A DNA stretch of 64,000 bases, taken from Nitrospirota bacterium (GTDB lineage Bacteria > Nitrospinota_A > UBA7883 > JACRGQ01). The notes under the pieces were generated by a model that had not been told where the DNA came from, did not search any database, and saw only the letters and a list, made by a program, of their open reading frames with translations. Positions within the stretch are counted from its first letter, which is position 1, and each line of letters begins with the position of its first letter. The stretch is from contig JAJRYD010000029.1 in assembly GCA_024275955.1 (NCBI GenBank), positions 4,500 to 68,499 of the forward strand, written 5' to 3'. Positions 1 through 42,331 of this stretch are shown here, one piece after another. Both the position numbers and the translations under genes were made by a program.

Positions 1-1451
1 CTAAAATAAAGAGCGTAATTATTGCGACTCTTGGTGAGCTTGGCGACCCTGAGTCGGCTAGGAAGCTGGTACGGCTGATTAGCGACGATGATATTGTGGT
101 TCGGCAGATGGTTATCGAGGCGGTAGAGAAAACCGCCGATACATCTATCGTGGACGACGTGATTTATCTCGTAAAGGATTCTGGTGATGTTAATGTGCGC
201 AGAGCCGGAGTAGAGATATTGCAAAATATTAAGGACCCTAAAGCTACGGCGGTACTGATAAAGGGGATGCGTGATTCCGACTGGTGGGTGAGGGAAATCT
301 CTACAGATGCTCTTACCACGATGAAATCGGAAGACCTTACCTCCAAGATACAGGAGCTTTTTAAAAGTGACGACGAAAACGTGCGGCGGGCGGCTGTCGA
401 ATTTTTTAAGCGTATGCCGGATGAGTCTACGTTTGAGCCGCTTTTAACCCTGCTAAAAGATGACGACTGGTGGGTGAGGGAAAAAGCGGTAGAAGCTCTT
501 GGCGAACTTAAGGATGAGCGGGCCGTTGATGAAATAATTCTGCTCATTGATGACCCTGATGTCCGGTGGGTGGTTCCAAAGGCGTTGGCAAATATCGGAG
601 GCTTGAAGTCGATAACTTTTCTTACCGATTTTCTACAAGACCCGGACAGAGCGGTAAGGCTTGCCGCTCTTGAGGGGCTGGGGAGGATAAAGGATAAGAA
701 TACGCTTAAGACTATAAAAGCCTGCGTAAAAGATTCTGATTCGGATATACGAAATAAGGCTCTGGAGATAATAAAGGAGATGACCGGCCGCGCTGTGAAA
801 GCAAGCGATATTATAGCGGAACAGGAGCGTCAGGAATGGTCGGGCGGGAGTACCGTGATGTCGGCATACGTTCCAGATAAGCCGCAGATACTCGTTGAAG
901 CTATTTTAGTGCTGGATCTTTGTAATTCTACAGAGATAGGGGTGAATTTTGGTGATGACTTTGCGCTAAAGATTACCTCTCGTCTTGTTGAGCTGACAAA
1001 GCCGATAGCTACAAGGCATCGGGTAAGGTTTACAAAAAGCACGGGCGATGGATATCTTATGACGTTTGGCGAGTTAAAAGGCTCTCTGGAGTTTGCCAAA
1101 GCTATTTCTATAGCGATTACCCAAAGCAATTCCAAGGTTCCGGCAAATGAAATGATAGACATTAGAATTGCCATTAACTTTGGCGAAACAAGAGTCGATA
1201 CCAAGGGGGATAGGCTTGGTACGGCGGTGAACAAGACCTTCCGCGTTGAAGGGCTTAAAGGGGAGGATATTATCGAAGATGAAGGCGGTATGACCCCTGA
1301 TGAACTACCAGCGGTAAATCGAACGCTGATAACTGAGGCTGTACACGAGGCGCTGGACAAGTGCGACGGCTTCTTGTCTAAGTATGTGGGGCTTTTTGAC
1401 CTGAAAGGCATTTCCGGCAGGCACAGAATATATCAAATGGTATCTGATTAA
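1..1451 (+). CDS. HEAT-repeat (PBS-lyase type) protein with a C-terminal class III nucleotidyl (adenylyl/guanylyl) cyclase domain. The 5' end lies upstream of the window.
   Basis: The open frame runs from base 3 with no stop. It contains repeated HEAT-like units (DSDWWVRE..A..AL twice). The C-terminus carries cyclase catalytic motifs: LVLDLCNST (metal-binding Asp), KSTGDGYLMTF, IRIAINFGETRV and GTAVNKTFRVEG. The gene ends with TAA at 1449-1451. Confidence 0.75.
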   Translation, partial: KIKSVIIATLGELGDPESARKLVRLISDDDIVVRQMVIEAVEKTADTSIVDDVIYLVKDSGDVNVRRAGVEILQNIKDPKATAVLIKGMRDSDWWVREISTDALTTMKSEDLTSKIQELFKSDDENVRRAAVEFFKRMPDESTFEPLLTLLKDDDWWVREKAVEALGELKDERAVDEIILLIDDPDVRWVVPKALANIGGLKSITFLTDFLQDPDRAVRLAALEGLGRIKDKNTLKTIKACVKDSDSDIRNKALEIIKEMTGRAVKASDIIAEQERQEWSGGSTVMSAYVPDKPQILVEAILVLDLCNSTEIGVNFGDDFALKITSRLVELTKPIATRHRVRFTKSTGDGYLMTFGELKGSLEFAKAISIAITQSNSKVPANEMIDIRIAINFGETRVDTKGDRLGTAVNKTFRVEGLKGEDIIEDEGGMTPDELPAVNRTLITEAVHEALDKCDGFLSKYVGLFDLKGISGRHRIYQMVSD

Positions 1452-1463
1452 AGGGAGGCGGTC

Positions 1464-1925
1464 TTGGACAAGACAAGAAATATTTTGGTTGAGATGATAA
1501 AAGGTTTACCGTTTTTTGACGGGTTTGAAGATGATGATATAAGAAAGCTTACAACCTACATGAGTTTACGGCAGGTTCCAGAGGGGGATGTGCTGTTTGA
1601 AGAGGGCGACATTGGCGACTACCTCTTTTTCATAATTGAAGGGGTCGTCGAAATAATACTGGGCGGGGAAAGCCACGGCAATAAAGTTATCGCCTCGGTG
1701 TCGGCTGGTGCATCGGTGGGCGAGATGTCTCTTATCGACAGTTATGAAAGATCGGCAACCGTTCGGGCCGCTACTGACCTTGAAATACTAATTCTTACTA
1801 AAACAAGGTTTGACAGAGTAATTAAAGAAACTCCAGATATCGGCGTAAAGGTATTGATGGGATTGGCAAGTAATATCAGCGGCCGTCTTCGCACTTCTCA
1901 AGGACGCTATAGGGATCTTGTTTGA
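1464..1925 (+). CDS. Cyclic-nucleotide-binding (cNMP/CAP-effector) domain protein
   Basis: Motifs FEEGDIGDYLFFIIEGVVEI and GEMSLID..RSATVRA are typical of a cNMP-binding beta-roll. The start codon is TTG, preceded by a strong SD (AGGGAGG) 5 nt upstream. The gene sits directly downstream of the cyclase. Confidence 0.8.
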   Translation: MDKTRNILVEMIKGLPFFDGFEDDDIRKLTTYMSLRQVPEGDVLFEEGDIGDYLFFIIEGVVEIILGGESHGNKVIASVSAGASVGEMSLIDSYERSATVRAATDLEILILTKTRFDRVIKETPDIGVKVLMGLASNISGRLRTSQGRYRDLV

Positions 1926-1930
1926 GATAG

Positions 1931-3121
1931 ATGAAAGAAAAAAGAGCTAATCTAGGGGTGTTGCCGTTTTTATTGCTTTGCGGCATCGTTGCCTTTGTTG
2001 GGCGTGGCGATACACTCGCGGAAGATTCTGGCCTATCCGGGCAATGGATAAACTCCCACTGGTTCCACCCGCTTCCGCCCATGGGCAAAAAGCCTACGGG
2101 CTTTTCGGATCTCGAAGCTTCGCTGATACCAAAGGATTGCGGTGAATGCCATGAAAAGCAGTATAGCGACTGGTCTGCTTCACGGCACTCAAAATCTATG
2201 GGGAATGGCGTTGTCGGACAGTTTCATCCGCCGTGGATAGATGACAAAATGAGAGTGAGCTGTCAGGAATGCCACGCGCCTTTGTATGAGCAAAACCCTG
2301 TCGTGGTCGCTGGCGGGGAGATAGTTAAGAACAGGCTTTATAAAAAGGATGTCGCGTCATACGGTGTTTCGTGCGCCGTATGCCATGTCCGAAAGCATGT
2401 AAGGTATGGCCCGATACCAAGAAAATTACAGGATCCAGATACGCCGCATAACGGGTTTATCGAGAAAAATGATTTTAACAGCTCCGAATTTTGCAAACCT
2501 TGCCATCAGTTCAACCCTAACGGCAGGTCGCTAAACGGAAAGCTTATGCAAGATACCTATGAACAATGGAAGCGGTCGCCTGCCGCCAAAGAGGGGAAGG
2601 TTTGCGCTTCTTGTCATATGCCGGACAGGAAGCATATTTTTCAGGGAGTACACCACGAACAGATGGTTAACGAAGGGCTTTCGGTAGATTTGGAAAGAGG
2701 GGCCGAGTACGCGACTCTTTCGGTTAAAAATACTGGGGTTGGGCATAAATTTCCGACATATGTCACCCCAAAGGTTGTGGTTTCGGGAAAGGTCATAAAT
2801 CTCGACGGAAAGGCTGTAGATGGAACCCTAAAGGAGTATTACATTCAATGGAGTGTTTCGCTAGATTTAAGTGAGGAGTATTTTGATACAAGGCTCGACC
2901 CAGACGAAACGCTTAAGGCGTACTTCAAGTTTCCTATGGAGCATTCCGGTAATATATTCGAGATAGATATCAGAGTTTACCCAGATGAATTCTACAGGCG
3001 GTTTTATGAGGCTATGATAGCAAATCCTCCAAAGGGGGTAGATGTTCCCATGCTTAAAAAAGCGCTAAAAGAAGTAAAGAGTTCGGATTTCTCTGTCTAC
3101 AACCGGCGAGTCGCGTTTTAG
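1931..3121 (+). CDS. Multihaem c-type cytochrome, periplasmic, with five CxxCH motifs
   Basis: It has an N-terminal signal-peptide-like hydrophobic segment. The haem-binding motifs are CGECH, CQECH, CAVCH, CKPCH and CASCH. Confidence 0.8.
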   Translation: MKEKRANLGVLPFLLLCGIVAFVGRGDTLAEDSGLSGQWINSHWFHPLPPMGKKPTGFSDLEASLIPKDCGECHEKQYSDWSASRHSKSMGNGVVGQFHPPWIDDKMRVSCQECHAPLYEQNPVVVAGGEIVKNRLYKKDVASYGVSCAVCHVRKHVRYGPIPRKLQDPDTPHNGFIEKNDFNSSEFCKPCHQFNPNGRSLNGKLMQDTYEQWKRSPAAKEGKVCASCHMPDRKHIFQGVHHEQMVNEGLSVDLERGAEYATLSVKNTGVGHKFPTYVTPKVVVSGKVINLDGKAVDGTLKEYYIQWSVSLDLSEEYFDTRLDPDETLKAYFKFPMEHSGNIFEIDIRVYPDEFYRRFYEAMIANPPKGVDVPMLKKALKEVKSSDFSVYNRRVAF

Positions 3122-3859: not shown

Positions 3860-4735
3860 ATGGAGCTGAAAAACGAAGACTTTCTTGAACTAAAAAACTA
3901 TATACACAAAACGTGCGGCATACATATCAATGAGAGCAAGAAATATCTTGTACAGCAAAGGTTATCGCCTGTGGCGCAATCGCTGGGGCTTGAATCGTTT
4001 AGAAAACTTATACAAAAACTGGAGAACGATTCTGCCTTGGGAGAGAGGATAGTAGAAAGCATAACCACGAATGAAACAAGTTTTTTTAGAGATGACCATC
4101 CTTTTGGCACTTTTGGGACGATGATTCTTCCAAAGCTTGGAGAGCTGATACGCAAGAGAAAAGAGCGTCAGAATAATATGGAAGGGCCGAAAGTGAACCT
4201 ATGGTGCGCCGCGTCGTCAACAGGTCAGGAGCCTTATAGCCTTTCTATGCTGATAAGCGAGTACGTCGATTCGAATAAATATAACGGCATCTCTATAGAC
4301 GATTTTTCAATACTCGCGACAGATATTTCGTCTGAGGTTTTGTCTCAGGCTATATCTGGAGAGTATTCGAACTTGGAGGTAAGACGCGGCCTTTCAGACG
4401 AGAGAAAAAAGAAATATTTTATCAAGAGAGAACCTGACGGATGGATTCTTAGCGGAGCAATTAGAGGCATGGTCGATTTTAGAAAAATAAACCTCGCTGA
4501 AAGTTTCACAACGCTTGGCCGGTTTGATGTCATTATTTGCAGAAATGTTTTGATCTATTTTGACGACCATACTAAAGGTAGAATTTTTAGTCAATTTAGG
4601 AAGATGCTGTCTGACGATGGTTTGCTTGTTCTTGGAGCGTGCGAAAATGTCCGCCTGCTTACTGACGAATTTGAATCTTTTACACATGGGCAGACAATAA
4701 TGTATAGGCCAAAAACATCTAAGGCTCCTCGGTGA
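3860..4735 (+). CDS. cheR: Chemotaxis protein methyltransferase CheR (solitary copy)
   Basis: It carries the CheR N-terminal all-alpha domain and the SAM methyltransferase domain, with SFFRDDHPF and VWCAASSTGQEPYSL motifs. Confidence 0.85.
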   Translation: MELKNEDFLELKNYIHKTCGIHINESKKYLVQQRLSPVAQSLGLESFRKLIQKLENDSALGERIVESITTNETSFFRDDHPFGTFGTMILPKLGELIRKRKERQNNMEGPKVNLWCAASSTGQEPYSLSMLISEYVDSNKYNGISIDDFSILATDISSEVLSQAISGEYSNLEVRRGLSDERKKKYFIKREPDGWILSGAIRGMVDFRKINLAESFTTLGRFDVIICRNVLIYFDDHTKGRIFSQFRKMLSDDGLLVLGACENVRLLTDEFESFTHGQTIMYRPKTSKAPR

Positions 4736-9819: not shown

Positions 9820-10386
9820 ATGGGTCGGCTTAATTTATCTAACTTGCAGAAAGACGAGCGGATTTTGGCAAAGGTTCTTCTTAAAAACGACATTGTGGGC
9901 GAGGCGAGCCTTCAGCAGTATATGGACTTTAATAAGATACATGATGAGGTTGGCAAAGAATTTTTAGGCAAGATACTTATTCGGCTTGGCTACATCACCG
10001 AGGCCGACCTTGATCGGTACATACTTGAAAAGGAGAAGCCATACCTTGAGTTTTGCGAACTGCTTGTGAAGGATGGTTTTATAAAACCGGAGCAGTTTCA
10101 AGAGGTCAAAAGACGGCACGAAAGCGAAGGGCAGGATGTTTTGACGGCTGTCTCCGATATGAACATAATGACCAGAGATACGTTTGTGCGGAGCTTCAAT
10201 AATAAAATGTTCGGTTTAAGGCTTGGGGAATGGCTGAAGTTGAGCCAGAAAGTTACAGACGAGCAGATAGAAAAAGCCCGTGACGCACAAAAAGTTTACA
10301 CTCTTTCCGCTTACCTCATTCACAAGGGGCTTTGTTCCAAAGCGGTAATTGAGCAGGTAGAAGAAAAGATAGCGTTGGCTACATAA
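9820..10386 (+). CDS. Small protein built of tandem GspE-N/MshEN-like repeats (paralogue A); candidate c-di-GMP-binding adaptor
   Basis: It contains repeats such as LAKVLLKNDIVGEASLQQYM and FLGKILIRLGYITEADLDRYILEK, plus three further copies. These fit the MshEN/T2SSE_N pattern (R)LGxxLLxxGLLxxxxLxxxLxxQ. No ATPase domain is present. Confidence 0.5.
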   Translation: MGRLNLSNLQKDERILAKVLLKNDIVGEASLQQYMDFNKIHDEVGKEFLGKILIRLGYITEADLDRYILEKEKPYLEFCELLVKDGFIKPEQFQEVKRRHESEGQDVLTAVSDMNIMTRDTFVRSFNNKMFGLRLGEWLKLSQKVTDEQIEKARDAQKVYTLSAYLIHKGLCSKAVIEQVEEKIALAT

Positions 10387-10411
10387 ATTCTTATATAAGT
10401 GCGGAACGTTT

Positions 10412-11023
10412 GTGAACGAGTGCCGGGGGAATATTGAGATAAGTGGGGGAGTTATAAACGTGGCTGATCTGGATTTTGACGCGCTGGAAACAAAAGAAAA
10501 AAACCTAGCCAAAGTTCTATTAAAGAACAACCTGATGACCGAAGAGGTCTTTGGCAAATACCTTAAATTTAAAGAAGAGTGTGACGATATGGGCAAGCAG
10601 TCGCTTTGGAAAGTCCTTTTGCGTCTTGAGTATCTTACTCAAGGTGACCTAGATGAATATATTGAGGAGAGGAAAGAGCCGTACATACAGTTCTGCAAGA
10701 CGCTGGTTAACGACGGCTTTATGGAGCAGGAGCAGTGGGAGGCGGTTCAAGAGCAATGCAAGAACGGTAAAGAGATAGTGATGGCTTTGAGTGATGAGAA
10801 TGTAATGACGAGAGATAACTTTTTGCGTAGTTTTATACGTCATACAGGCGAGCCGAGATTGAGCGAATGGCTGGTTAGTAAAGCCAAGCTGACCGCTGAA
10901 CAGCTAAAGAACGCTAAAAAGCTTCAGCGCGAGTGCCGGTTATCCGATTTTTTAATTCAGCATGGTTTTTGCAAAGAGAATGTCGTGAGGAAGGTCGAGG
11001 AAAAGATAGCCGCCGTCAGCTAG
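10412..11023 (+). CDS. Paralogue B of the GspE-N/MshEN-like repeat protein
   Basis: It is colinear with paralogue A (LAKVLLKNNLMTEEVFGKYL.., LLRLEYLTQGDLDEYIEE.., ..KVEEKIAAVS). The two form a tandem duplication 26 nt apart. Confidence 0.5.
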   Translation: MNECRGNIEISGGVINVADLDFDALETKEKNLAKVLLKNNLMTEEVFGKYLKFKEECDDMGKQSLWKVLLRLEYLTQGDLDEYIEERKEPYIQFCKTLVNDGFMEQEQWEAVQEQCKNGKEIVMALSDENVMTRDNFLRSFIRHTGEPRLSEWLVSKAKLTAEQLKNAKKLQRECRLSDFLIQHGFCKENVVRKVEEKIAAVS

Positions 11024-17736: not shown

Positions 17737-18464
17737 CGGAAACTAACGGGAAAGATAAAAGAGAAGGACACCGCAAAAGGCTTAGAGAAAAGTTTTTAGA
17801 GCATGGCCTTGAAAAGTTTACCGACGAGGAGATAGTCGAGCTGTTGCTGACTCTTGCTACGCCGAGGAAAGACTGCAAGCAGGCGGCAAGGGAGGCATTA
17901 AAAACTTTTGGAACGCTCCGCAACGTGCTGGAGGCCGACCTCGATTCGTTGACGGAGATAAAAGATATAGGCCCTTCCAACGCTTTTGGCATTAAGTTTA
18001 TCCATCAGGTTACGAAAAAGTTTCTGCGCGACAGAATGATAGAGAAAAGGGCGTTTCATTCTTCCGATGACCTTCTTGACTATCTTAACCACTCTATGAG
18101 GTCGCTTAAGAGAGAGGTTTTTCAGATTATATATCTTGACGCGGTTGACAGGATAATTGACGAAGAAATCATAGCAGTAGGCACGGCGACGGAGGTGCCG
18201 GTCAGCCCCCAGCAGATAGTCGAGCGGGCGGTAAAGCGCGGCGCGGCGAATATTATGATAGCGCACAACCATCCGGGCGGCGAGGCGGAACCTTCGGAGG
18301 ACGATAAGGCTATGACGCGCGAAACGGTTTTTGTCTGCGGCATGATGAAGCTAAAGCTAAGGGAGCATGCGATTGTCGCTCCGCGCGGCCACTTTAGTTT
18401 TTCAAAGGAAGGTCTTATCGCCGAGTATGAGCATCAGCTCCGCAAGGTGCAAAAGAAGATTTAA
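17733..18464 (+). CDS. radC: RadC-like JAB/MPN domain protein (UPF0758)
   Basis: It has a helix-hairpin-helix N-terminus and a JAMM motif (HNHPGGEAEPSEDD). It overlaps the upstream gene by 4 nt. Confidence 0.8.
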   Translation: MTETNGKDKREGHRKRLREKFLEHGLEKFTDEEIVELLLTLATPRKDCKQAAREALKTFGTLRNVLEADLDSLTEIKDIGPSNAFGIKFIHQVTKKFLRDRMIEKRAFHSSDDLLDYLNHSMRSLKREVFQIIYLDAVDRIIDEEIIAVGTATEVPVSPQQIVERAVKRGAANIMIAHNHPGGEAEPSEDDKAMTRETVFVCGMMKLKLREHAIVAPRGHFSFSKEGLIAEYEHQLRKVQKKI

Positions 18465-19351
18465 CAAGTAGAGCTATCAGTTGTCTGCCTGATTTTTTCA
18501 GGTAGGGCAGGTAGGTCTTTTTCAGTCAGCAGGGCTAATCTAGCTTTTGGGGCGAAGGCATATCTTCCGACCCTTCTGATTGATAGTTTTATAAAGTCTT
18601 CCATCCATTTTTCTTCTCCAACCCCGAAGTCTCTTTTTGGATTTGCTTTTCTGGAGGTTTCTTCGTTTCCGACGACTGATGTGAGATACCCAAAGTCATT
18701 TAAAATGGTGAGGCTTATTTTAAATTTTCTGCTTGCTTTGCATCGGTTCTGTCGGTGGTGATCTTCCGCAATATCTTTGTTCTCGCAACTTTTTTTGTCG
18801 CATTTGCAGATATCACTGGCTTCTTTTTCCAAAATGGTTAGGCAGGTATAGCCGATATCGGTTAGGCGGGCACTCCCTTTTTTATAAGTTTCGAGTAGTT
18901 TAAGCATTATTCTTACTGTCGAAGAGAATTGGAATTTTTCAGGTGGTGAAGGGTAAGCTCCTGCTTGAATATTCCGCGACATTGGGCATTCTGCTGAGAC
19001 CGGCCGCCTCGTATACTGATGGGCTAAACTGCCATCGGCTCTCTCTTTTAGAATGCCGGCATTTTTATATTTAAATCTTGTCCCATAAAGATTATGTTTC
19101 AAAATGATTTCAGCTTCCCACGCTAGTACAAAATCTTTAACATGCGACTTGGCTTCCTCGATATCTTTAAAATATTTTTTGTCTTTGAATTGTATTGTCA
19201 ATTTTCCGTCGGTATGAGCTTCGTCTGTTTGTTCTAGGATGGCTGTAAAGTCTTCGTATTCCTTTATGATAGGTTCTGGATTGTCGAAAAGCATTGGGGA
19301 TGGTGTTAGCAGGCTGTACGTAAGCTTCTCGACATAAATAGTTTCAGCCAT
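18461..19351 (-). CDS. Hypothetical protein with a Cys cluster, encoded immediately downstream of hicB-hicA
   Basis: The 296-aa ORF has no recognisable domain. A Cys cluster (CKCDKKSCENK...C) is present. Its start codon abuts the hicA stop with no gap. It looks AT-richer than the flanks. Confidence 0.45.
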   Translation of the reverse strand: MAETIYVEKLTYSLLTPSPMLFDNPEPIIKEYEDFTAILEQTDEAHTDGKLTIQFKDKKYFKDIEEAKSHVKDFVLAWEAEIILKHNLYGTRFKYKNAGILKERADGSLAHQYTRRPVSAECPMSRNIQAGAYPSPPEKFQFSSTVRIMLKLLETYKKGSARLTDIGYTCLTILEKEASDICKCDKKSCENKDIAEDHHRQNRCKASRKFKISLTILNDFGYLTSVVGNEETSRKANPKRDFGVGEEKWMEDFIKLSIRRVGRYAFAPKARLALLTEKDLPALPEKIRQTTDSSTC

Positions 19352-24384: not shown

Positions 24385-25242
24385 ATGAGCATTGAAAGAG
24401 CGGATGTAGTTAGTCAAATAGACAAGCTTCCGGCCTTTAACGCTACTGTGGCAAAGGTGATACAACTTTCAAACGATCCAAAATCCCAGCCGAAAGACCT
24501 TGTTCACGCAATCAGTATCGACCCTATATTGACGGCCGAGATTTTAAAGCTAATTAACTCCGCCTATTTCGGCGTTGCGACTCAGGTTGTTTCCCTTCAG
24601 CGGGCTGTGGTTATGCTTGGGTTGAACACTGTAAAAAATCTTGCTCTCAGCTCGTCTCTTATCTCCAATATAAAGATGCGCAACAACTTTCAATGGTTCA
24701 CCAGTGACGAGTTTTGGGAACATTCTCTTGGAACTGCTGTAGGTGCCAAGTTGGTGGCGGCTAGCAGGTCTGTGCCTATTGCGGAAAGGGAGGAATATTT
24801 TATCGCCGGACTGCTTCACGATATGGGTAAAATCGTATTTGTGCAGTATCATCACGAGGAGTATGCGAGAATTATGGATCCTGATTTCAGGCCTGGAGAA
24901 AGAAAGTCTAACCTAGAGGTGGAATCGTTTGGCGTGAATCATGCCGAGCTTGGCGGCCTTATGACCGAAAGCTGGAAGCTTCCCCAATCGCTTTGCGACT
25001 CAATAAAGGAGCATCACAGGCCGAGTTTTAACGGCGATTCGTCTGATATTGTAAAGGCGGCGGTGAGTCTTTCGGATTTTGTTTGCAATAAAAGACAGCT
25101 TGGGATAAAAAGCTATGTAGGGATGGAAGAGCCCGACCCGATGGTATGGGAGGTTCTTTCGCTTGATGAAGGCGACGTGGATGGCCTGTTTGCTAACCTT
25201 GACAAGGAAGTCGAGAAAGCAAAGGTCTTTTTAAGGCAGTAG
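24385..25242 (+). CDS. HDOD domain protein (HD-related output domain)
   Basis: It shows the HDOD core: LP..P.V..KVIQL..DP......LV..I..DP.LTAEILKL(I)NSAYFG...V.SLQRAV..LG. A degenerate HD motif (LLHDMGK) is also present. Confidence 0.8.
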   Translation: MSIERADVVSQIDKLPAFNATVAKVIQLSNDPKSQPKDLVHAISIDPILTAEILKLINSAYFGVATQVVSLQRAVVMLGLNTVKNLALSSSLISNIKMRNNFQWFTSDEFWEHSLGTAVGAKLVAASRSVPIAEREEYFIAGLLHDMGKIVFVQYHHEEYARIMDPDFRPGERKSNLEVESFGVNHAELGGLMTESWKLPQSLCDSIKEHHRPSFNGDSSDIVKAAVSLSDFVCNKRQLGIKSYVGMEEPDPMVWEVLSLDEGDVDGLFANLDKEVEKAKVFLRQ

Positions 25243-27770: not shown

Positions 27771-30700
27771 TTGACAAGAGAAAACAGTATCGACCCAGAT
27801 AGATATACAACCGGGCCGCCATCTTTAAACTCTGGCGGGCCTAGCGTTGTATCGGTCACAGGTACGGCTGGAGGAGCCGGGAAAACTACGTTGGCACTTT
27901 GCTCGGGGATAGCTGTAGCTTCGGCCGGGCATAGGGTGCTGGTGGTCGATTTAGGTTATTCCGGCGGCCGAATGCTTTCCCTGCTTGGGATGAGCCAGCC
28001 AGACCGAAACCTTCACAACTATTTTAAGAGATCCAAAACGCTTGAAGAGGTAATTATTTCGACCACTGTTCCGCACCTCTCTTTAATTCACGGTGGGGCA
28101 ATCTTGACCGATAGCTTTCAGGGAAAGCTTACCCGCATAAACCTTTTGAGGAACCTGAGGAAACTTCCGTTCGAGTTTATTTTTCTAGATCTCGGCATGT
28201 TGTGGAACAGCCAGAGGTCGGGGCTGTTTGCCTCATCGGATTACCGTATCGTAGTCGGCACGGAGGAAGAATCTACCTCCAGCGCGGTAGTACAGCTGGT
28301 TTCTTCTAACCTATTTTCAGAACTGGGTGACTATCCAAAGCTTACGAGAGAAGATAGGGAAAGCCTCGACGCTATTGAAAACAGATTTGCCTATAACCCA
28401 GATTTTTCCGTTTTGGGTGGTCAGTTGAAGGAGCAGGTACCACCACTAAAGGAAGAGTGGGAAAAGCTGTTTTCCGGCTATGAGGTAAATATTTTTTTAA
28501 ATAAGGTTTCCTCTCTTGATTACTTTAGGTTCTTAAAAATAGGCTACGAAGAATGTTTTAGAAATGCCTCGCTTAGCGGCTACCGCTTGCTACCGATTCC
28601 GAACTGTCTTTCATTTCCAGAAGATCTTTCCGCAATTTTGAACAGCTCGTTTTTTGCCGCTTGCCGCGGGTGGATTGTAGACCTTTTGGGGCTTGGTGGC
28701 AGGGAAAACGAAGATATTGAAGTGATTTTTTCTTCGGCGCAAGAGCTTTTAAAGGGCGGCCGCGTTTCGGCCGAAATTGCCGGTAAGCCTGTTGTAAAAA
28801 ACTTTGGGAACGAAGTGGAAAAAATTGACCGTGAGATGGAGCTGGTTCGCGCGGAGAAATTTGAAGCGGTCAACCGTGCTGTTGAAAAGAGTATGTTCGA
28901 TCGTAAAAAAGAGGCATCGCATAAACTTGAACTGGAAGCGGAAGAAAAGCGGTATGCCCTTAATGACGAAGTCGAAAACCAGAGGCGCAGATTTCAGCTT
29001 GAGATGGAGAGGGAAGCCGACATCCTAAGAGCCGAAAGAGACGCAAAACTCTCTATGGAGTTCAACGAGAAATCGGCACAATTTACCGAAGAGCTTTCCT
29101 TGATACGCGCGAGCAGGATAAAGGATATGGAAAGCCAGCTGGAGAAATATTATCCAAGCGCTAGAGCCGCCTTTGAAAACGAGATGAAGATGAAAAGAAA
29201 AAGGCGGGAGATGGAGATTGAAGACGAACTTCGCCTGCTGAAGAAAAAACGGTTAAGCAAAATCGAAAATGAGCTGGCGGTAGAAGTAGATAAGGTTCGT
29301 GAAATGATATGGCAGGAACTTGAAACAAAACGCGAAACGAGAATGTCTCAGATTGACGACAGAATCCACCAGTACAGAGAGGAAAAACGCAAAGAGGTGG
29401 ATAATGAGTTTAAGAAAAAGAAAAGTTTTCAGATCTCTAAACTTGACAAAGAGATAAGCGTTCGAAGGGAGAACCTTCTTATGGATATCTTTAAGGAAGT
29501 GATGGAGACTACGTCACTTTTAGATGAAGAAGAATATCAAAGAAAGGCGAAGCTACAAAGCCGCCTAAACGCGGAACTTTCAGAAGAGAGAGAGGCGGCG
29601 AAAGCGCGAATGCGCAAGGAAGTAGATAACTACCGCGACGAAAAGACGGCTGAAATTCTAAATCAGATAAGCGCGTTTAAAAAAGAAAAGATGGAAATGT
29701 TCAAAGGAGAGGTAGACGAACTTCGCGAAAGGCTTAAGGAAGAGGCGACCGAAGAGGCAGAAGATGTACGAAAAAAGATAATAAGTAAAACTTCCGCGAT
29801 TCTGAATAGAGAACGTATTGAACGGATGGAGAAAGTAGATAGAGAAATTCGTGCAATAAGAACATCTAGAGAGTTGTCGCTCGACAAGGAGATGACAAAG
29901 CTTGAAGACAAAATGAGAGGGGAAGTACACCACAGGATTATCGAAGAGGAAAAAAGGCTTGTCTCTATGCTTGAAAAAACCTTTTCAGACAGAAAGAAGG
30001 AAAAGGAAAATATACTGCGCGGCTTTCTAAAAACCGAACGGACAAAGAAAATTACCGAGCTCAATGATGATGTTAAAAAATTAAAACAGACAATGCTGGA
30101 AAATATTTCCAGTGAGATGGAGGTTGTTAAGGCTCTTCAGGTTGAGAATGTCGAAACAGAGGTTACCAGTATAAGGGAGGCGCGGCACAAAGAACTTGAA
30201 AAGGGCCTGCAGGATGAAATAAGAGAGAGGACAAGAGCTATCTCTTACGCGATTCGCGGCAAGGAATCTAAGCTTCGCACTGAAATGGCGGAGGGGGTAT
30301 CTAATGAGGAGGTGCGGTTGCGGGCGTTGATACATGAAAACCTGAAAGTAGAATCGAACGAACTGCGCAGAAAGATGCTAAGCAAACTGGCTAGTCAGGA
30401 AGACGAGCTGAGAACGCAAAGCAGGGTTGAAGTTGATAATGAAAAAAGCCGGAGGATGGACGAGCTGGAAAGAGAAATTGATTTGAAGAAAAGAGATGGC
30501 GCCGAACTGCTTGAAGGCTGGAACAGTAGGAAGAAAGCGGAGATGCTTCGCGATGTTATAGCTGGTATTAGTGAGGAGGAAAAGCTAAGGCGCGAGCTTA
30601 TGTCCTCGGAATTAGAGTACGAGATGAAAAACGAAAGGCGCAAACGGATGATTCGATTACAGCGGCTGGAGGAAGAAGAAAGAAAAAAGCTAAAGTTGCT

Positions 30701-31151
30701 TATCGAGCGAAGCAGGCTGTCCGCGACCAGCAAAATCAAGAAAATAGCACGCGAAGAATATCTCCGGCGGCTCGACTCGATGCAAGAGGAATTTAAGATG
30801 GAGAGGGAGAGCCGGCTTGAACTATTGATAAGGGATATTGACTCTGAAAAGAAAATTCAAATGAGCCGTATAGGTGAGACGATTTTAAGGAAAAAGGAAG
30901 ATGCTCTTTTAGAGCTTGAAAACGAGCTAATCGGGGTTAGGGCTAAAAAGCTGTCTGAGGTAGAAAGATATGTGGAAACTCAAGAAAGGAAAGTAGATGA
31001 AAGGCTCGACAAAAGATATTCCGAGCTTTTAAGGAAAAAAGATGAGTGGGTAGATTTTGAGGCGAGAAAGACAGCTATTAAAGCCAAGGAAAGATTGCAC
31101 GAGGAGCTTGAATCTGAAAAAGAGCGCTGGCTTCAGGGATACCTTGCGTAA
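27771..31151 (+). CDS. Giant protein (1126 aa): N-terminal ParA/MinD-superfamily P-loop ATPase-like domain fused to about 850 aa of continuous E/K/R-rich coiled coil
   Basis: The start codon is TTG. The P-loop reads VVSVTGTAGGAGKTTLAL followed by VLVVDLG, which is the ParA/MinD architecture but without the deviant-Walker-A signature lysine. Residues from about 330 to 1126 are heptad-like ERxxKE repeats. The gene ends at TAA 31149-31151, and the frame continues into 31185..31676. Confidence 0.7.
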   Translation: MTRENSIDPDRYTTGPPSLNSGGPSVVSVTGTAGGAGKTTLALCSGIAVASAGHRVLVVDLGYSGGRMLSLLGMSQPDRNLHNYFKRSKTLEEVIISTTVPHLSLIHGGAILTDSFQGKLTRINLLRNLRKLPFEFIFLDLGMLWNSQRSGLFASSDYRIVVGTEEESTSSAVVQLVSSNLFSELGDYPKLTREDRESLDAIENRFAYNPDFSVLGGQLKEQVPPLKEEWEKLFSGYEVNIFLNKVSSLDYFRFLKIGYEECFRNASLSGYRLLPIPNCLSFPEDLSAILNSSFFAACRGWIVDLLGLGGRENEDIEVIFSSAQELLKGGRVSAEIAGKPVVKNFGNEVEKIDREMELVRAEKFEAVNRAVEKSMFDRKKEASHKLELEAEEKRYALNDEVENQRRRFQLEMEREADILRAERDAKLSMEFNEKSAQFTEELSLIRASRIKDMESQLEKYYPSARAAFENEMKMKRKRREMEIEDELRLLKKKRLSKIENELAVEVDKVREMIWQELETKRETRMSQIDDRIHQYREEKRKEVDNEFKKKKSFQISKLDKEISVRRENLLMDIFKEVMETTSLLDEEEYQRKAKLQSRLNAELSEEREAAKARMRKEVDNYRDEKTAEILNQISAFKKEKMEMFKGEVDELRERLKEEATEEAEDVRKKIISKTSAILNRERIERMEKVDREIRAIRTSRELSLDKEMTKLEDKMRGEVHHRIIEEEKRLVSMLEKTFSDRKKEKENILRGFLKTERTKKITELNDDVKKLKQTMLENISSEMEVVKALQVENVETEVTSIREARHKELEKGLQDEIRERTRAISYAIRGKESKLRTEMAEGVSNEEVRLRALIHENLKVESNELRRKMLSKLASQEDELRTQSRVEVDNEKSRRMDELEREIDLKKRDGAELLEGWNSRKKAEMLRDVIAGISEEEKLRRELMSSELEYEMKNERRKRMIRLQRLEEEERKKLKLLIERSRLSATSKIKKIAREEYLRRLDSMQEEFKMERESRLELLIRDIDSEKKIQMSRIGETILRKKEDALLELENELIGVRAKKLSEVERYVETQERKVDERLDKRYSELLRKKDEWVDFEARKTAIKAKERLHEELESEKERWLQGYLA

Positions 31152-31184: not shown

Positions 31185-31676
31185 ATGCTGGAAGAGATTA
31201 AAGACGAAAAGAAGAAAATGCTCGCGGAGGCTATGGAGTCGGTCGACATTGAGAGAGAAAAACGCTTTCTGGAGATAACGGAAAGCCTGCATGGTGAAAG
31301 CAGAAAGGAGCGAGAGTCTCTCTATAAGAAGCTGGAGCTTTGGGAGCTGGAGCGCAAAGGCGAGATAGAGAGTGAGCTTGACGAGGAAAAAGAAAAACGG
31401 CTTGAAGCTTTTGAAAGAGAAATGCAGATAGAGCGCAACAGAAAAATGGAGCAGATGCGTGTCGAGATTAAGACCGAGGAGTATTCCAAACGGCAGGAGA
31501 TACTTTCTGAAATAATGCAGAGAAAGTCGGAGCTTGATAACTTTTATCAGAATGAGAAAAAGAAATATCTTGAAAGACTGCAAGATGAAATTTTAAAGGA
31601 AGGACAAAAGGGTAGAGCGCCGGAAATTCTTCAAGACGAGATCGAAAGGCTTCAACGCAAATGGCGGATGAACTGA
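31185..31676 (+). CDS. Coiled-coil protein (163 aa), in the same frame as the giant upstream gene and separated from it only by one TAA plus 33 nt with no stop
   Basis: It has the same E/K/R-rich heptad composition (ERKGEIESELDEEKEKRLEAFEREMQIERNRKMEQ). It may be the C-terminal continuation of 27771..31151, disrupted by a nonsense codon. Confidence 0.5.
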   Translation: MLEEIKDEKKKMLAEAMESVDIEREKRFLEITESLHGESRKERESLYKKLELWELERKGEIESELDEEKEKRLEAFEREMQIERNRKMEQMRVEIKTEEYSKRQEILSEIMQRKSELDNFYQNEKKKYLERLQDEILKEGQKGRAPEILQDEIERLQRKWRMN

Positions 31677-35974: not shown

Positions 35975-38101
35975 ATGGGGAAAGCTGAAGCAGGGAAGAT
36001 GCCGATAAAGGATATTCTTACCTCCAAGGTTGTATTTTGCGACCCAGATAGTCATCTTTCTGTTGCGGCCAACACCATGATAGAAAAGAAGATAAGTTCT
36101 CTTTTGGTAGTGGATGGCGATACGCCTATCGGCATAGTTACCGAGAGCAATCTGGTAAGAATGGCAAATGACGGCAGACCATTTGAGACGACCAAAGTGA
36201 AAGATGTAATGAGCAGTCCGCTTGTTACCGCTCATGGTGATCTCGATGTTTTTGACGCTTACCGTGTTATCTGTTCCAACGGTATTCGCCACATAGCGAT
36301 TGTCGATGACGACGGCAAGGCTGTTGGTATCGTGAGTTATACAAACATAATATCCGGCATGGGGCTGGCGCAGGGGATGGTGCGTAAAGTTTCCAAAATA
36401 ATGACAAAAAAGCCTTTGACCTGCTCCCCATCTGACAGCCTTAAAGAGGTAATATCCAAAATGGTTGAGGAAAATTTCAGCTATACCATTGCTATGAAAG
36501 AGCGGAAGCCTTTGGGGATTGTAAGCGAACGGGATGTAGCAAGGCTTCTAACCGAGAGGGCCGCTCTCGATAGGCTGACTGTGGCTGAGGTGATGAGCCA
36601 CCCTCTTTTATCTATCGACCCGAACATGCCTATTCAAGAGGCGGCGCGCTTAATGCGGGAGAGAAAACATAGACGGCTTGTGGTGACAAGCGGAAACGGG
36701 AACCTGTCTGGAGTGGTTTCTCAGGGCGATATTATCAAAGGAATGATGGAAGGCAGGTATATCCAATCGCTAAAAGATATCGTAATGAAAGAGGAGCAGG
36801 TTCTAAGCGCTTTTGAAGAGACTTTAATAAAGAAAACTATTTTTCTCGACAGCATGCTTAATTCGGCCAAAGACCTCGCGGTAATAGCTACCGATACTGA
36901 GATGCGGATCGTTTATTTTAATTCTGCGGCTGAAGATGTTTTTGGGTACAAGCTAAATCAGGTGATTGGTAAAACCGTCATGCAGATACATAGCAAAGAG
37001 AAAGACGGCAATTTTATGAATTTTGAGATGGCTATGAATCAGGTGAGGGAAGAAGGCGAATATAGCGTAATCATCGAGTTAAAAAGAGGCTGTGAAAAAA
37101 GAGTTGTCGGCTTGAGAATATCGCCGATTATTGATTACCGCGACAGGAAAAAGACTACTCAAGGGTTTATGCTGATGGGCAAGAATATAGAAGGGCGGAT
37201 GCGTAATGAGGACATACTAAGACAGCAGGAAGCAAAATGGCGTTCTCTTTTTGAGAGTTCCAAAGATGTTGTCTACATATCCGACCTTGACGGGAACCTG
37301 ATTGAAATGAACCAGACAGGCGCCGACCTTTTTGGCTATAAACAAGAAGAAATACTAAGCAAAAATATGAAAGAGTTTTACAAAAACCCTGAAGATAGAG
37401 ACGCATTCGTGGAAAAGATAAGAACTCACAAGTATGTGAAAGACCACGAGGCAGAACTTGTAAATAGAAAGGGAGAACTGATTTTTGCCCGCATTACCGC
37501 CGCTATCCAAAAAGACAAGGCGGGGAAAATCTCCGGCTATCAGGGGATAATAAGGGACGCTACGGAGCATAAGAAAAAAGAAGAAGCGATAAGCTTCCTT
37601 GCTTTCCACGACGCGCTTACATCACTGCCTAATAGACGCACGTTTGAAGATAGGCTCTCGAATACTCTTGAGCATGCCAAACGAACCAAAGAGACGGGGG
37701 CGGTGATGTTTATGGACCTAGACGGCTTCAAGGCGGTAAACGATAACCTTGGACACGATGTGGGAGACGCACTGCTTAAAAAGGTCGCGGAGATACTTAA
37801 CAGCTGTGTACGAGCGGAAGATACCGTGGCAAGATTCGGCGGAGACGAGTTTGTAATTCTGCTTCCGGTTGTAAGAAGTGTGAAAGATGCCGCTATGGTC
37901 GCCAACAAGGTGGTCGGTGCTATCAACCAGACCCAGAAGATAATGTGTAACGATCTGCTGGTAGGAATGAGTATTGGTATAGCACTCTTCCCTGATGACG
38001 GCCTTCAGCCCGACATACTTATCAAAAAGGCGGATAACGCGATGTATCTTGCCAAGCAGTCCGGCAAGAACTGCTATAAGGTTTATTCAGAAAACTTTTA
38101 A
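35975..38101 (+). CDS. Sensor diguanylate cyclase: four CBS domains, two PAS domains and a GGDEF domain
   Basis: Four CBS repeats (for example VTAHGDLDVFDAYRVICSNGIRHIAIVDDDGK) lie at the N-terminus. Two PAS domains follow. The C-terminal GGDEF domain has the intact active-site motif RFGGDEF and an RxxD-like I-site region. Confidence 0.85.
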   Translation: MGKAEAGKMPIKDILTSKVVFCDPDSHLSVAANTMIEKKISSLLVVDGDTPIGIVTESNLVRMANDGRPFETTKVKDVMSSPLVTAHGDLDVFDAYRVICSNGIRHIAIVDDDGKAVGIVSYTNIISGMGLAQGMVRKVSKIMTKKPLTCSPSDSLKEVISKMVEENFSYTIAMKERKPLGIVSERDVARLLTERAALDRLTVAEVMSHPLLSIDPNMPIQEAARLMRERKHRRLVVTSGNGNLSGVVSQGDIIKGMMEGRYIQSLKDIVMKEEQVLSAFEETLIKKTIFLDSMLNSAKDLAVIATDTEMRIVYFNSAAEDVFGYKLNQVIGKTVMQIHSKEKDGNFMNFEMAMNQVREEGEYSVIIELKRGCEKRVVGLRISPIIDYRDRKKTTQGFMLMGKNIEGRMRNEDILRQQEAKWRSLFESSKDVVYISDLDGNLIEMNQTGADLFGYKQEEILSKNMKEFYKNPEDRDAFVEKIRTHKYVKDHEAELVNRKGELIFARITAAIQKDKAGKISGYQGIIRDATEHKKKEEAISFLAFHDALTSLPNRRTFEDRLSNTLEHAKRTKETGAVMFMDLDGFKAVNDNLGHDVGDALLKKVAEILNSCVRAEDTVARFGGDEFVILLPVVRSVKDAAMVANKVVGAINQTQKIMCNDLLVGMSIGIALFPDDGLQPDILIKKADNAMYLAKQSGKNCYKVYSENF

Positions 38102-39564: not shown

Positions 39565-39860
39565 TGCATAAGGAAGATATTTTAGATAGCCTTAAATCGG
39601 TTATCGACCCAGAACTCGGCATAAACATAGTCGATTTGGGTTTGATCTATAATGTTAATGTCAGCGGTAACGACGTTTTTGTTACGATGATGATGACTTC
39701 ACAGGCTTGCCCGATGGGAGACCTCCTTAAAATCGAAGTGGTTGATGCCATCAGGAAGATTTTTCCGTCCGCGGGAAAGGTAGAAGCAGTTCTTACGGTA
39801 GATCCGCCGTGGACAAACGAAATGATGTCGGGCGACGCAAGGAAACAGCTTGGACTCTAA
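39564..39860 (+). CDS. DUF59 / MIP18-family Fe-S cluster assembly protein (SufT/PaaD-like)
   Basis: It carries the motif LKSVIDPELGINIVDLGLIY...MTSQACPMG. Confidence 0.8.
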   Translation: MHKEDILDSLKSVIDPELGINIVDLGLIYNVNVSGNDVFVTMMMTSQACPMGDLLKIEVVDAIRKIFPSAGKVEAVLTVDPPWTNEMMSGDARKQLGL

Positions 39861-39868
39861 AGGTTTCG

Positions 39869-40954
39869 ATGTTCCTTTATAAAGTAAGGTTTCCTCTGCT
39901 TGCTGTCGGTCTGCTCTCGCTTATCGGCGCGCTCTACTCCGGCCTTATAAGGCTCGGTTTCGATCTGCCGTTTATACATTTCGATTTACCGGAGGCGCAT
40001 GGGCCTCTTATGATTGCCGCCTTTCTCGGTACCGTGATAGGGCTGGAAAGGGCTGTAGCGCTAGAGACACCGTGGGGTTATCTATCTCCGCTTCTTGCCG
40101 GTGTTGGCGGTCTGCTGGCATTGCTTGGTGTTTCTAACGGTGCGCCGCAGTTACTTATCTTTCTTTCGAGCATAGTTCTTATCTTGATGTATGCCGTAGT
40201 TCTAAAGCGGCAGTTAGAGTTTTTTAATGTCATCATGGCGCTTGGCGCTGTCTCTCTTTTTATCGGAAACCTTCTCTGGCTATCCGGCGAGCCTATATAC
40301 AACTTTGTGCTTTGGTGGGTAGCGTTTCTTGTGCTGACGATAGCGGGAGAGAGGCTGGAATTAAGCCGTGTGCTTAGCCATAGCAAAAATATTCTCTCTT
40401 TATTTTCTGTTGCTGTTGCTGTTTTTCTTTTAGGTATTGCGTTAGAGCGGTTCTTGCCCGGCATCGGTGTGCGGATAGCAGGCGTTGGTATGATTTTCAT
40501 TTCGCTCTGGCTACTCACCTTCGGTGTTGCAAGAGTTACGGTAAGGCAGAAAGGCCTTACACGGTATGTGGCTGTCTGTCTTTTGGCCGGCTACTTTTGG
40601 CTGATAATCGGCGGAGCTATAGCGGTAGTTGCCGGCGAGCTGGAGCCGGGCTTTGTGTACGACGCATTCTTGCACGCACTCTTTTTAGGCTTTACATTTA
40701 CCATGATTTTCGGGCATGCGCCGATAATCTTTCCGGCGGTATTGCGGATTCCTGTTCCGTATAGAGCCGGCTTTTATTCGCACCTTCTGCTTTTGCATGT
40801 TTCGCTTTCGCTTAGAGTAGGCGGCGATATCTTTGACCTTGACGAACTGCATGTATGGGGAGGGGTCGGCAACGTGGCGGCTCTTATACTATTTCTCGTC
40901 AACACAGTTTCATCGGTTGTAAGAGGTCTTCTGGCAAAACCTGCTAAGGGGTAA
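39869..40954 (+). CDS. Polytopic integral membrane protein of unknown function
   Basis: About ten hydrophobic helices are present. I placed the start at the ATG 8 nt after the DUF59 stop, because the longer ORF overlaps DUF59. Confidence 0.5.
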   Translation: MFLYKVRFPLLAVGLLSLIGALYSGLIRLGFDLPFIHFDLPEAHGPLMIAAFLGTVIGLERAVALETPWGYLSPLLAGVGGLLALLGVSNGAPQLLIFLSSIVLILMYAVVLKRQLEFFNVIMALGAVSLFIGNLLWLSGEPIYNFVLWWVAFLVLTIAGERLELSRVLSHSKNILSLFSVAVAVFLLGIALERFLPGIGVRIAGVGMIFISLWLLTFGVARVTVRQKGLTRYVAVCLLAGYFWLIIGGAIAVVAGELEPGFVYDAFLHALFLGFTFTMIFGHAPIIFPAVLRIPVPYRAGFYSHLLLLHVSLSLRVGGDIFDLDELHVWGGVGNVAALILFLVNTVSSVVRGLLAKPAKG

Positions 40955-41077: not shown

Positions 41078-42331
41078 ATGAGCCAGAATTTACGACCGAT
41101 AATCGAGCGCTATAAAAAGGATGGGGAGGCTGTTTATAACACTTGGTTTGTAAATAACGACGAGCGTCTCAAAGCGTTTCGTTCTATTAGGAGAGGCGTG
41201 CAGGATGTTATACGGGATATAAAAGAGAAAAATTTTGGGAATGACTTTAAAGGCTCTTCACTGGAGTTTGTCTTAAACTGTATTACAGAGCAAAAACAGG
41301 TTTTCATCGGCGCTTCGCATCCGTTTTACTGGAAACCGAAATTACGCATTCCTGATATTTATGAAAATGAGGATAACAAAGCCGCATTTGGACAATTTCT
41401 GGAAAACTGCCATAATTCCATCAGTGAAGAACAAATCTTAAAGGAAATAATTTTACTTAATCAGCGTAAGATTAAAGGTCTTGGTCCGGCCGTGGCCAAC
41501 ATCTTGTATTTTCTGCACCCAACGATAATTCCGCCTTTCAACACAGCTATAGTGAACGGCTTCAATCGCCTTTTTAAAGAAAAAATAAGACTGGGGTCAT
41601 GGGATGAATATCGGAAAATGCGCGCTGTTATTATGCATACAAATGCCGCCTTCAAGAATGATTTATCGAGCGATCTGGGCGCAATTTCCGGGTTTTTGTT
41701 TGATATCGGTGTTGGAAAAATTCATATCGGTGATGAACATACGCTTTCAGAAAAAGAAAAAACCAAAATTGAAAAGATGGTTAAAAACCGTCACCGCAAG
41801 GTAGTGGCGGAAAATGAAGAGGAAGATATCCATACAGAGATGCAGTACCATCTCTTAAAGATTGGCAATTCACTTGGCTATGATGTTATTAGCGCCTCAA
41901 ACGATAGGGCAAAATGCCATAAGGGTAAAAGTTTTTCTTTTATAAGCCTACCAAGCTTTCCTAAATTAGATGTTGGTGTTGATAAAGATACATTCAAAAC
42001 TATAGCTTTGATTGACGCTGTCTGGTTTAAAAAAGGCTCGAACAACATTGTATGTGCGTTTGAAGTGGAAAAGAGTACTTCCATCTATTCAGGAATTTTA
42101 AGATTAAAAGATTTATTCTATACATTTCCTAATAACCGACCGACGCTTTACTTGGTTATTCCCGACAATAGGGAAAAAGAGGTGATGCTACAATTAAACC
42201 GGCCGGCAATCAAAAATGGCGAAGTTGAAGTACGCTATATATTATTTTCCGATTTGAAACTGCATTGTGATTCAATATGCAAACTTGGGGAAAATAAAGA
42301 GATTATGAAAAAAATAGCCAAGGGTCTGTAG
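41078..42331 (+). CDS. Hypothetical protein with a C-terminal PD-(D/E)xK nuclease-like motif; candidate stand-alone defence or restriction-type nuclease
   Basis: A D...ExK core is present (TIALIDAVWF...12 aa...CAFEVEKSTSI). The N-terminal part has an HhH-like IKGLGPAVANILYFLHP. The gene is monocistronic, between a membrane-protein gene and lgt. Its composition is visibly AT-richer than the neighbours. Confidence 0.4.
   Translation: MSQNLRPIIERYKKDGEAVYNTWFVNNDERLKAFRSIRRGVQDVIRDIKEKNFGNDFKGSSLEFVLNCITEQKQVFIGASHPFYWKPKLRIPDIYENEDNKAAFGQFLENCHNSISEEQILKEIILLNQRKIKGLGPAVANILYFLHPTIIPPFNTAIVNGFNRLFKEKIRLGSWDEYRKMRAVIMHTNAAFKNDLSSDLGAISGFLFDIGVGKIHIGDEHTLSEKEKTKIEKMVKNRHRKVVAENEEEDIHTEMQYHLLKIGNSLGYDVISASNDRAKCHKGKSFSFISLPSFPKLDVGVDKDTFKTIALIDAVWFKKGSNNIVCAFEVEKSTSIYSGILRLKDLFYTFPNNRPTLYLVIPDNREKEVMLQLNRPAIKNGEVEVRYILFSDLKLHCDSICKLGENKEIMKKIAKGL

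Follow-up and report, generated by a model that had tools for sequence, protein, structure and literature searches.

Results

Two tandem genes raise the question of a small c-di-GMP receptor

Can a protein built solely of repeats that resemble MshEN, the ATPase MshE's N-terminal domain, which binds cyclic di-GMP (c-di-GMP), act as a c-di-GMP receptor by itself? This question is raised by two adjacent genes, hereafter p1 and p2, of a Nitrospirota bacterium. They lie on a stretch of 64,000 nucleotides (assembly GCA_024275955.1, contig JAJRYD010000029.1, forward-strand positions 4,500 to 68,499), which is called the window in what follows and is numbered from its first letter. The p1 gene (9820..10386, + strand) is an open reading frame (ORF) with an ATG start and encodes a stand-alone triple MshEN_N-like protein of 188 aa, MshEN_N being the N-terminal sub-domain of MshEN. 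The p2 gene (10412..11023, + strand) is a divergent tandem paralogue of p1 and encodes 203 aa when the maximal ORF is read from a GTG. We propose, with a probability of about 0.6, that both products are degenerate stand-alone (MshEN_N)3 adaptors from a small family, as yet without a name, whose members are soluble and ~188 aa long.

Word-indexed homologue searches performed with p1 and with p2 returned the query alone. Relatives were obtained through an exhaustive HMMER profile search of 1.84 billion representatives, which gave 98 matches. Fifteen of these are full-length relatives of 178–201 aa that share 21–45% identity. The family, which has no name, amounts to about 17 clusters, and Nitrospirae and Nitrospinota metagenome-assembled genomes (MAGs) are among its sources.

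p1 and p2 are homologous to the MshEN_N sub-domain

The MshEN-like similarity announced by the original prediction was confirmed with NF053729, an NCBIfam model of 53 positions named 'cyclic di-GMP-binding domain, MshE-related' that has a cutoff of 38 bits. p1 scored 63.1 bits and p2 49.4 bits, and every family relative tested was also above the cutoff (seven relatives, 39–75 bits). When a profile of the family was compared with all PDB sequences, the significant matches (E below 1e-3) were exclusively MshEN/GSPII-bearing proteins: Thermus thermophilus PilF (1.5e-11), Geobacter PilB (8e-8 and 9e-7) and Vibrio cholerae MshE (5HTL, 4.6e-4). In the alignment with 5HTL, family positions 46–99 fall onto MshE residues 7–60, which correspond to the c-di-GMP site. 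An internal repeat was detected as well, the first and third modules of the family (A and C, see below) aligning with each other with an hhalign probability of 91% (E 9e-7). These data show that the MshEN-like similarity is beyond chance and restricted to the N-terminal sub-domain, MshEN_N.

The repeats had also been labelled T2SSE_N, and a profile check against PF05157 and the MshEN structures had been suggested. Only the structural half of this check was positive, through the match to 5HTL. PF05157 (T2SSE_N) matched none of the 17 family members at E ≤ 1, it matched neither p1 nor p2 at E ≤ 10, and the MshEN_C/T2SSE_N1 alpha/beta sub-domain was found neither in the family by Pfam search nor in an AlphaFold2 model, which has no strands. 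The T2SSE_N label is consequently not supported. The description of proteins made solely of helical repeats, devoid of ATPase or output domain, proved correct: Pfam and NCBIfam revealed no T2SSE ATPase domain in p1 or p2, whose chains stop 4 residues past the last unit, and no other domain either, the repeat units occupying residues 15–184 of 188.

Six units form three modules

A motif scan resolved p1 into six 24-residue units (U1 to U6: residues 15–38, 48–71, 77–100, 106–129, 134–157 and 161–184) that are separated by spacers of 9, 5, 5, 4 and 3 residues. About five repeats per protein had been announced; the scan gives six units in each, equivalent to three MshEN_N modules. The family profile aligned unit for unit with P0090, a metagenomic protein of 190 aa made of three canonical MshEN_N doublets (hhalign probability 97.6%, E 3e-12, 167 columns). 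Because this alignment runs end to end, the units were paired as U1+U2 (module A), U3+U4 (module B) and U5+U6 (module C).

In p1, U1 (9862..9933, +; aa 15–38, ILAKVLL...) is motif I of module A and carries Ala instead of Gly at position 3. The following unit, U2 (9961..10032, +; aa 48–71, FLGKILIRLGYITEADLDRYILEK), aligns to R9-L10-G11 of MshE in 5HTL and is the best-preserved half-site of this module, with 10 of the 11 relaxed key positions. Module B (10048..10206, +; aa 77–100 and 106–129) has both signature glycines replaced and contains the motifs FC and IMT[KR]D, which are specific to the family. U5 (10219..10290, +; aa 134–157, RLGEWLKLSQKVTDEQIEKARDAQ), which includes the almost invariant Trp138, represents a near-canonical version of motif I in module C and falls onto motif I of PilF and PilB, while U6 (10300..10371, +; aa 161–184, TLSAYLIHKGL...) is a degenerate motif II of the same module. 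In p2, both the position-1 aromatic residue and the glycine of U2 are lost (10601..10672, +; SLWKVLLRLEYLTQGDLDEYIEER; S-L-W), and Ser stands at the glycine position of both U5 and U6 (10856..11008, +; RLSEWL... and RLSDFL...). One consensus-like repeat per protein had been described; p1 has two near-consensus units (FLG... and RLG...) and p2 has no 'LG' unit at all (SLW, RLS).

AlphaFold2, supplied with the 17-sequence alignment, gave an all-helical model of p1 (predicted local distance difference test, pLDDT, 91.3; predicted template modelling score, pTM, 0.69) in which 11 helices track the six units and a long helix, 61–84, bridges U2 and U3. A Foldseek search of the PDB with the whole-chain model returned nothing significant. 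Module A predicted in isolation formed four helices with a moderate pLDDT of 67.9, a hint that the modules support one another. Its best four Foldseek matches among 350,542 PDB chains were 5HTL, at the top, and three c-di-GMP-bound PilF GSPII-B entries (TMq 0.46–0.47, root mean square deviation 4.1–4.7 Å), with E values of 2.3–4.6 that are not significant. Together, the tests of this and the preceding section show the homology of p1 and p2 and their architecture.

No module of the family holds a complete c-di-GMP site

Each of the 24-residue motifs of MshE binds one half of the ligand, a GMP, in cooperation with the other motif of its four-helix bundle. Contact with the guanine is made by the backbone of the glycine at position 3, and the substitutions G11L and G40I abolish binding. 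Among natural variants, T. thermophilus PilF GSPII-A (RLG... plus SLA...) fails to bind c-di-GMP, Deinococcus geothermalis PilB_3 does not bind it either, which is chiefly ascribed to G40E, and Xanthomonas XpsE, which has G11V, G40L and further changes, has lost binding. The ND0 domain of Xanthomonas citri PilB is without the motifs, and an N-terminal fragment containing it (PilB12-163) binds the protein PilZ.

In the family, position 3 is Ala in 16 of 17 members in U1, Gly in 16 of 17 in U2, Cys, Leu, Met or Val in U3, Val, Ile, Ala or Leu in U4, Gly in 16 of 17 in U5 and, in U6, Glu in nine members, Ala in four, Ser in two and Thr in one of the 17. The Glu of U6 recalls G40E, to which the lack of binding of PilB_3 is chiefly ascribed. 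The glycine is replaced in four of the six units, and the two that are left, in U2 and U5, sit in different doublets. No module of the family has Gly at position 3 in both motifs of one doublet. A full match to the relaxed motif of Wang et al. was found in none of the 17 members, whichever the unit; about 90% of the distant canonical HMMER matches hold at least one. Neither p1 nor p2 has (R/K/L)-L-G at both motif starts of any doublet together with the LxxxLxxQ hydrophobic cluster, the pattern looked for in a c-di-GMP receptor. Because the canonical site needs two intact motifs per bundle and the bundles of the family have at most one essential glycine, a c-di-GMP receptor function of p1 and p2 appears doubtful. 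Canonical binding by p1 seems possible yet unlikely, and c-di-GMP binding by p2 very unlikely. From the sequences and from the published mutants and natural variants, we infer that canonical c-di-GMP binding is absent.

The original prediction took the opposite view, namely that p1 at least, and the family generally, would serve as true receptors or adaptors, of small size, for c-di-GMP. The nucleotide would then be bound, roughly in the manner of MshEN_N, by module A (xLA... plus [Y/F]LG...), by module C ([R/K]LGEW... plus xLx...) or by both, and the signal passed to a partner protein. This view, which we judge unlikely while giving it more weight than any other alternative, has to accommodate the lack of a doublet with two position-3 glycines, the absence of the relaxed motif from all 17 members, the loss of binding that goes with G11L, G40I, G40E and an SLA-type second motif, a p2 without any signature glycine, and the lack of an adjacent c-di-GMP gene or riboswitch (see below). 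Several observations speak for it, and most of them also weigh against the explanation that we favour. A model named c-di-GMP-binding, NF053729, is passed above its cutoff. G50 in U2 and G136 in U5 are kept in all 15 other members though the fold needs no glycine there (XpsE has V and L), and the invariant G45-K46 and W138 beside them are kept as well, which points to a ligand-type constraint retained at these two units. Even the Ala at position 3 of U1 is conserved (16/17), and it is the mildest substitute for Gly. In module A, every position of the hydrophobic cluster is intact. A hydrophobic residue is tolerated at position 1 in high-affinity binders, as PilF GSPII-B has Leu there and binds c-di-GMP with a dissociation constant (KD) of 6 nM. 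The isolated MshEN_N of MshE, without the C-terminal sub-domain, binds c-di-GMP at 0.35 µM, and that of an Aeromonas CheA still binds it at 2.6 µM despite four substitutions (Wang et al. 2016, PMC5013675). One distant member of the family adjoins an HD-GYP gene and another a flagellar motor cluster. No functional or binding study of any stand-alone MshEN_N array was found in a literature search.

p2 is a divergent copy with a probable internal start

With an identity of 43% across 185 aa (E 4e-53), p1 and p2 are true paralogues. They had been presented as adjacent, colinear genes of 188 and 203 aa. The two ORFs do follow each other on the same strand; for p2, a length of 187 aa is more likely. 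Start-codon analysis detected no ribosome-binding site ahead of GTG 10412, the start of the maximal ORF. A Shine-Dalgarno-like GGGGGAG (10445..10451, +), read from the sequence, is located 8 nt upstream of an in-frame GTG at 10460. Translated from this codon, p2 has 187 aa and an N-terminus (MADLDFDAL..., MADLDFDALETKEK) that aligns with those of p1 and of all relatives. Because of the GGGGGAG at 8 nt and of the family-like N-terminus and length, GTG 10460 is probably the true start of p2 and the annotated GTG start wrong.

Over the 21 most conserved columns of the family, p1 deviates at none and p2 at three, two of these being the surviving glycines (G50→W, G136→S). No other member among the 17 has lost both of them, and in p2 the aromatic residue at position 1 of U2 has gone too. 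A six-frame sweep with the family hidden Markov model (HMM) detected a single copy at each of the 13 related loci; only this window had two. At two related loci, L010 (4292–5162) and L011 (1996–2866), an uncalled gap of ~870 bp separates the family gene from the S58 peptidase gene; no second copy was found in this 870-bp gap, which contains short repeat-like ORFs only. These repeated short ORF fragments (MNHPCIPSLGA...QGG... twice) suggest a small repeat or mobile element. The neighbour-joining tree does not date the duplication: p2 groups with P0003 at a bootstrap of 72%, and p1 joins at 37% only.

We consider p2 to be a functional but divergent copy, presumably ligand-blind, rather than a pseudogene, because its ORF is intact and preceded by a good ribosome-binding site. 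Alternatively, p2 could be a decaying or redundant duplicate that is heading for a pseudogene. Such a fate would fit a singleton that has no other relative closer than ~44% identity among 5.8 billion proteins, the single copy at all 13 related loci, the loss of both conserved glycines in p2 alone and the 8-bp overlap of its stop codon with the convergent S58 peptidase gene. It is nevertheless improbable, given a frame that is intact across 187–203 codons, the conservation of 18 of the 21 most conserved columns, the good Shine-Dalgarno ahead of GTG 10460, scores of 49.4 bits on NF053729 and 237.6 bits on the family HMM, and a position next to P0003 (bootstrap 72%) instead of a long orphan branch.

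A protein-interaction role is proposed for p1 and p2

According to the explanation that we favour, the family would descend from canonical stand-alone (MshEN_N)3 c-di-GMP receptors. The ligand-contacting glycine has been replaced in four of the six units, so that no module retains both halves of the canonical c-di-GMP pocket. p1 and p2 would act as small cytoplasmic adaptors or scaffolds whose output is protein–protein interaction, as in the degenerate ND0 of XpsE and of Xanthomonas PilB, and it is the analogy with these domains that suggests the adaptor role. At best, p1 might show weak or non-canonical binding of guanine nucleotides at its half-sites, [Y/F]LG in U2 and [R/K]LGEW in U5. p2, a divergent extra copy seen in this genome only, has both remaining glycines gone and is predicted to be a non-binder. 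The two genes are probably co-transcribed as a small operon of their own.

A different use of the same half-sites can be imagined, to which we give only a slim chance. U2 ([Y/F]LG and the invariant G-K) and U5 ([R/K]LGEW), which belong to different bundles, could come together when the three modules fold and share between them a pocket for one molecule of c-di-GMP or of a different guanine nucleotide. p2, in which both half-sites were lost together, would then be a ligand-blind competitor or partner of p1. If true, this would be a new way to build an MshEN-type site.

Hardly any credit can be given to the view that the MshEN_N likeness merely reflects a generic helix-turn-helix repeat (GxhTxEEh hairpins) of another helical family, PATAN/DUF4388 or FumaraseC_C-like, as could be suggested by weak Pfam matches to DUF4388 (9 of 17 members, best E 2.8e-5) and to FumaraseC_C (11 of 17, best E 2.5e-7) and by the lack of significant whole-chain Foldseek matches, since in p1 and p2 these matches are below the gathering cutoffs and span just 26–57 residues, whereas the curated MshE-related model passes its cutoff, all PDB profile matches below E 1e-3 bear MshEN, the family aligns end to end with a canonical (MshEN_N)3 protein and the best four Foldseek matches of the isolated module are all MshEN/GSPII structures.

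PATAN/DUF4388 (PF14332) was rejected with scores of 16.1 and 16.8 bits for a gathering cutoff of 25, over model positions 34–85 of 122 only. The DUF4388 and FumaraseC_C hairpin similarities of the family, sub-threshold in p1 and p2, were taken as motif-level noise. The FumaraseC_C match corresponds to a local 'hhxxxxhTxEEF' helical-hairpin likeness (U1 region of p1, residues 28–53 of p2) and may mislead automatic annotation.

The family is narrowly distributed and includes one ATPase fusion

Members of the family share the signature G-K-x-[Y/F]-L-G, F-C, I-M-T-[K/R]-D, [R/K]-L-G-E-W-L, D-Y-L and K-V-K-E-K. Its named entries are all called 'hypothetical protein'; one comes from a Nitrospinota MAG, and one locus from a Nitrospirae MAG. 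The sole multidomain member found is P0017 (L005 726-2747, GCA_054033575.1), a protein of 673 aa in which a MinD/ParA-like ATPase is followed by a low-complexity linker of ~250 aa and by a C-terminal triple module of the family type. This fusion fits a partner-binding role and echoes the known MshEN_N-AAA_31 architecture. Because of this relative fused to a MinD/ParA-type ATPase, a protein of 1126 aa encoded in the window (27771-31151, +) is of interest; its only recognised domain is an N-terminal ParA/MinD-like P-loop (residues 26–175), and ~950 residues are without any domain.

The stand-alone organisation, initially regarded as unusual, is not. A (MshEN_N)2 protein, cce_1044 of Cyanothece, was listed in 2016 (Suppl. 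Table 4 of Wang 2016, PMC5013675), and pure canonical MshEN_N arrays of 120–400 aa, many of them metagenomic and including (MshEN_N)3 proteins of 190 aa, are common among the distant HMMER matches. MshEN_N-only architectures and degenerate, non-binding MshEN domains are thus both already known, separately. The novelty is modest and lies in an unnamed, narrowly distributed sub-family that combines the domain-only and degenerate traits, has a signature of its own and, here, a tandem copy without the last glycines.

Genomic context of the pair

Upstream of p1, ilvB-ilvN-ilvC are found on the opposite strand. Downstream, the stop codon of p2 is overlapped by 8 bp by a convergent Peptidase_S58 gene, beyond which lie genes for a REC-SpoIIE phosphatase, a PRC-barrel protein and a VKOR-DsbA fusion. 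Close relatives show the same arrangement, ilvBNC / family gene / Peptidase_S58 / REC-SpoIIE / PRC / VKOR-DsbA. The neighbours vary in distant ones: DAHP synthase and carbonic anhydrase; motAB-fliLMNO and a short-chain dehydrogenase; HDOD; HD-GYP; a sigma-54 activator. No conserved partner gene was found among the related loci examined beyond this lineage synteny.

A c-di-GMP-related genome region had been invoked for the pair. The genes concerned do exist in the window, but they lie 13–52 kb away with housekeeping genes between: an HDOD gene (24385-25242) at ~13 kb, a CBS-PAS-GGDEF gene (35975-38101) at ~25 kb and a PilB-like gene (62654-63997), which runs off the window, at ~52 kb. No c-di-GMP gene is adjacent to p1 and p2. 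At gathering scores, the window contained no Rfam family, no riboswitch was located close to the pair, and a promoter and terminator scan showed no excess over shuffled expectation. A role in defence was rejected: PADLOC returned no match for p1 and, for p2, only two weak similarities to Cas2_II (E 0.0036 and 0.014; ~20 residues).

The window contains an intact CheA gene (49863-51908, +) whose product has a canonical MshEN_N doublet between the Hpt and dimerisation domains (insert at about 50520-50675). This doublet (residues 220–271: EKLGDILVGSGEVDKEALEMALANK-EPDQM-VGDALVEQGVATEEQVGKAIDKQ; KLG...(5 aa)...VG...) scores 40.1 bits on NF053729, for a cutoff of 38, and provides an in-genome control. 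The CheA-MshEN_N architecture is the one for which c-di-GMP binding was shown in Aeromonas, at 2.6 µM (Wang 2016, PMC5013675). From its sequence, this CheA is a better candidate c-di-GMP receptor than p1 or p2.

A second CheA appears split into two ORFs, 45705-47357 and 47457-47975 (both +). The first comprises Hpt, H-kinase_dim and the beginning of HATPase_c, and the other runs from mid-HATPase_c and includes CheW. A frameshift, decay to a pseudogene or faulty assembly could account for the split at 45705-47975. Its first part has a sub-threshold MshEN_N-like insert at residues 314–362 (33.8 bits). Four ORFs had no Pfam match at E ≤ 1e-5: 39809-40954 (+, 381 aa), 41078-42331 (+, 417 aa), 18461-19351 (-, 296 aa) and 31185-31676 (+, 163 aa). 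At 96-3121 and 3860-4735 (+), a HEAT-repeat protein, a cNMP-binding protein that stands alone and an MtrC/c554-like multihaem cytochrome, then a lone CheR, form a signalling/redox cluster that is unrelated to the pair.

Discussion

Of the two c-di-GMP receptor modules that are widespread, MshEN is one, and the receptor counts given by genome censuses are based on domain matches. The family of p1 and p2 passes a curated 'c-di-GMP-binding' cutoff without a complete site, and receptors would probably be overcounted if they were annotated by domain name. Should p1 bind nucleotide, a single half-site in each bundle, or a site shared between bundles, would be sufficient and the definition of the motif would widen. 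p1 and p2, one with the glycines kept and the other with the glycines lost, would constitute a natural mutant pair for the question of half-site sufficiency. Otherwise, they would represent an ordinary uncharacterised family of small proteins of Nitrospirae- and Nitrospinota-type genomes.

Like p1 and p2, the MshEN_N of MshE is made of 24-residue helix-turn-helix units arranged in pairs (PDB 5HTL; Wang et al. 2016, PMC5013675). MshE has a single doublet with RLG in both motifs, followed by MshEN_C and the ATPase, whereas the family consists of three doublets only. G40 of MshE aligns to Cys, Leu or Met in the family, where the glycine is kept in U2 and U5 only. The domain-only architecture of p1 and p2 is shared by cce_1044, P0090 and P0033, and the last two, of ~190 aa, also have the six-unit layout. 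In canonical stand-alone arrays, hG is present in essentially every unit; in the family, it is found in two of six.

YcgR, MapZ and other stand-alone adaptors of the PilZ type are likewise small receptors without enzymatic output that act via partner proteins. They are established ligand binders, whereas binding by p1 and p2 is doubtful, and their fold is unrelated to that of p1 and p2.

The closest precedents for the loss of the site are PilF GSPII-A, D. geothermalis PilB_3, XpsE and the ND0 of X. citri PilB, which, as the family seems to do, keep the fold with the signature residues substituted (G to A, E, V or L). In these degenerate domains a good motif is paired with a bad one, or neither is good. 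Measurements showed that binding is lost in PilF GSPII-A, PilB_3 and XpsE; X. citri ND0 lacks the binding motifs. All of them are N-terminal parts of large secretion or pilus ATPases, whereas p1 and p2 are free-standing and carry the module three times.

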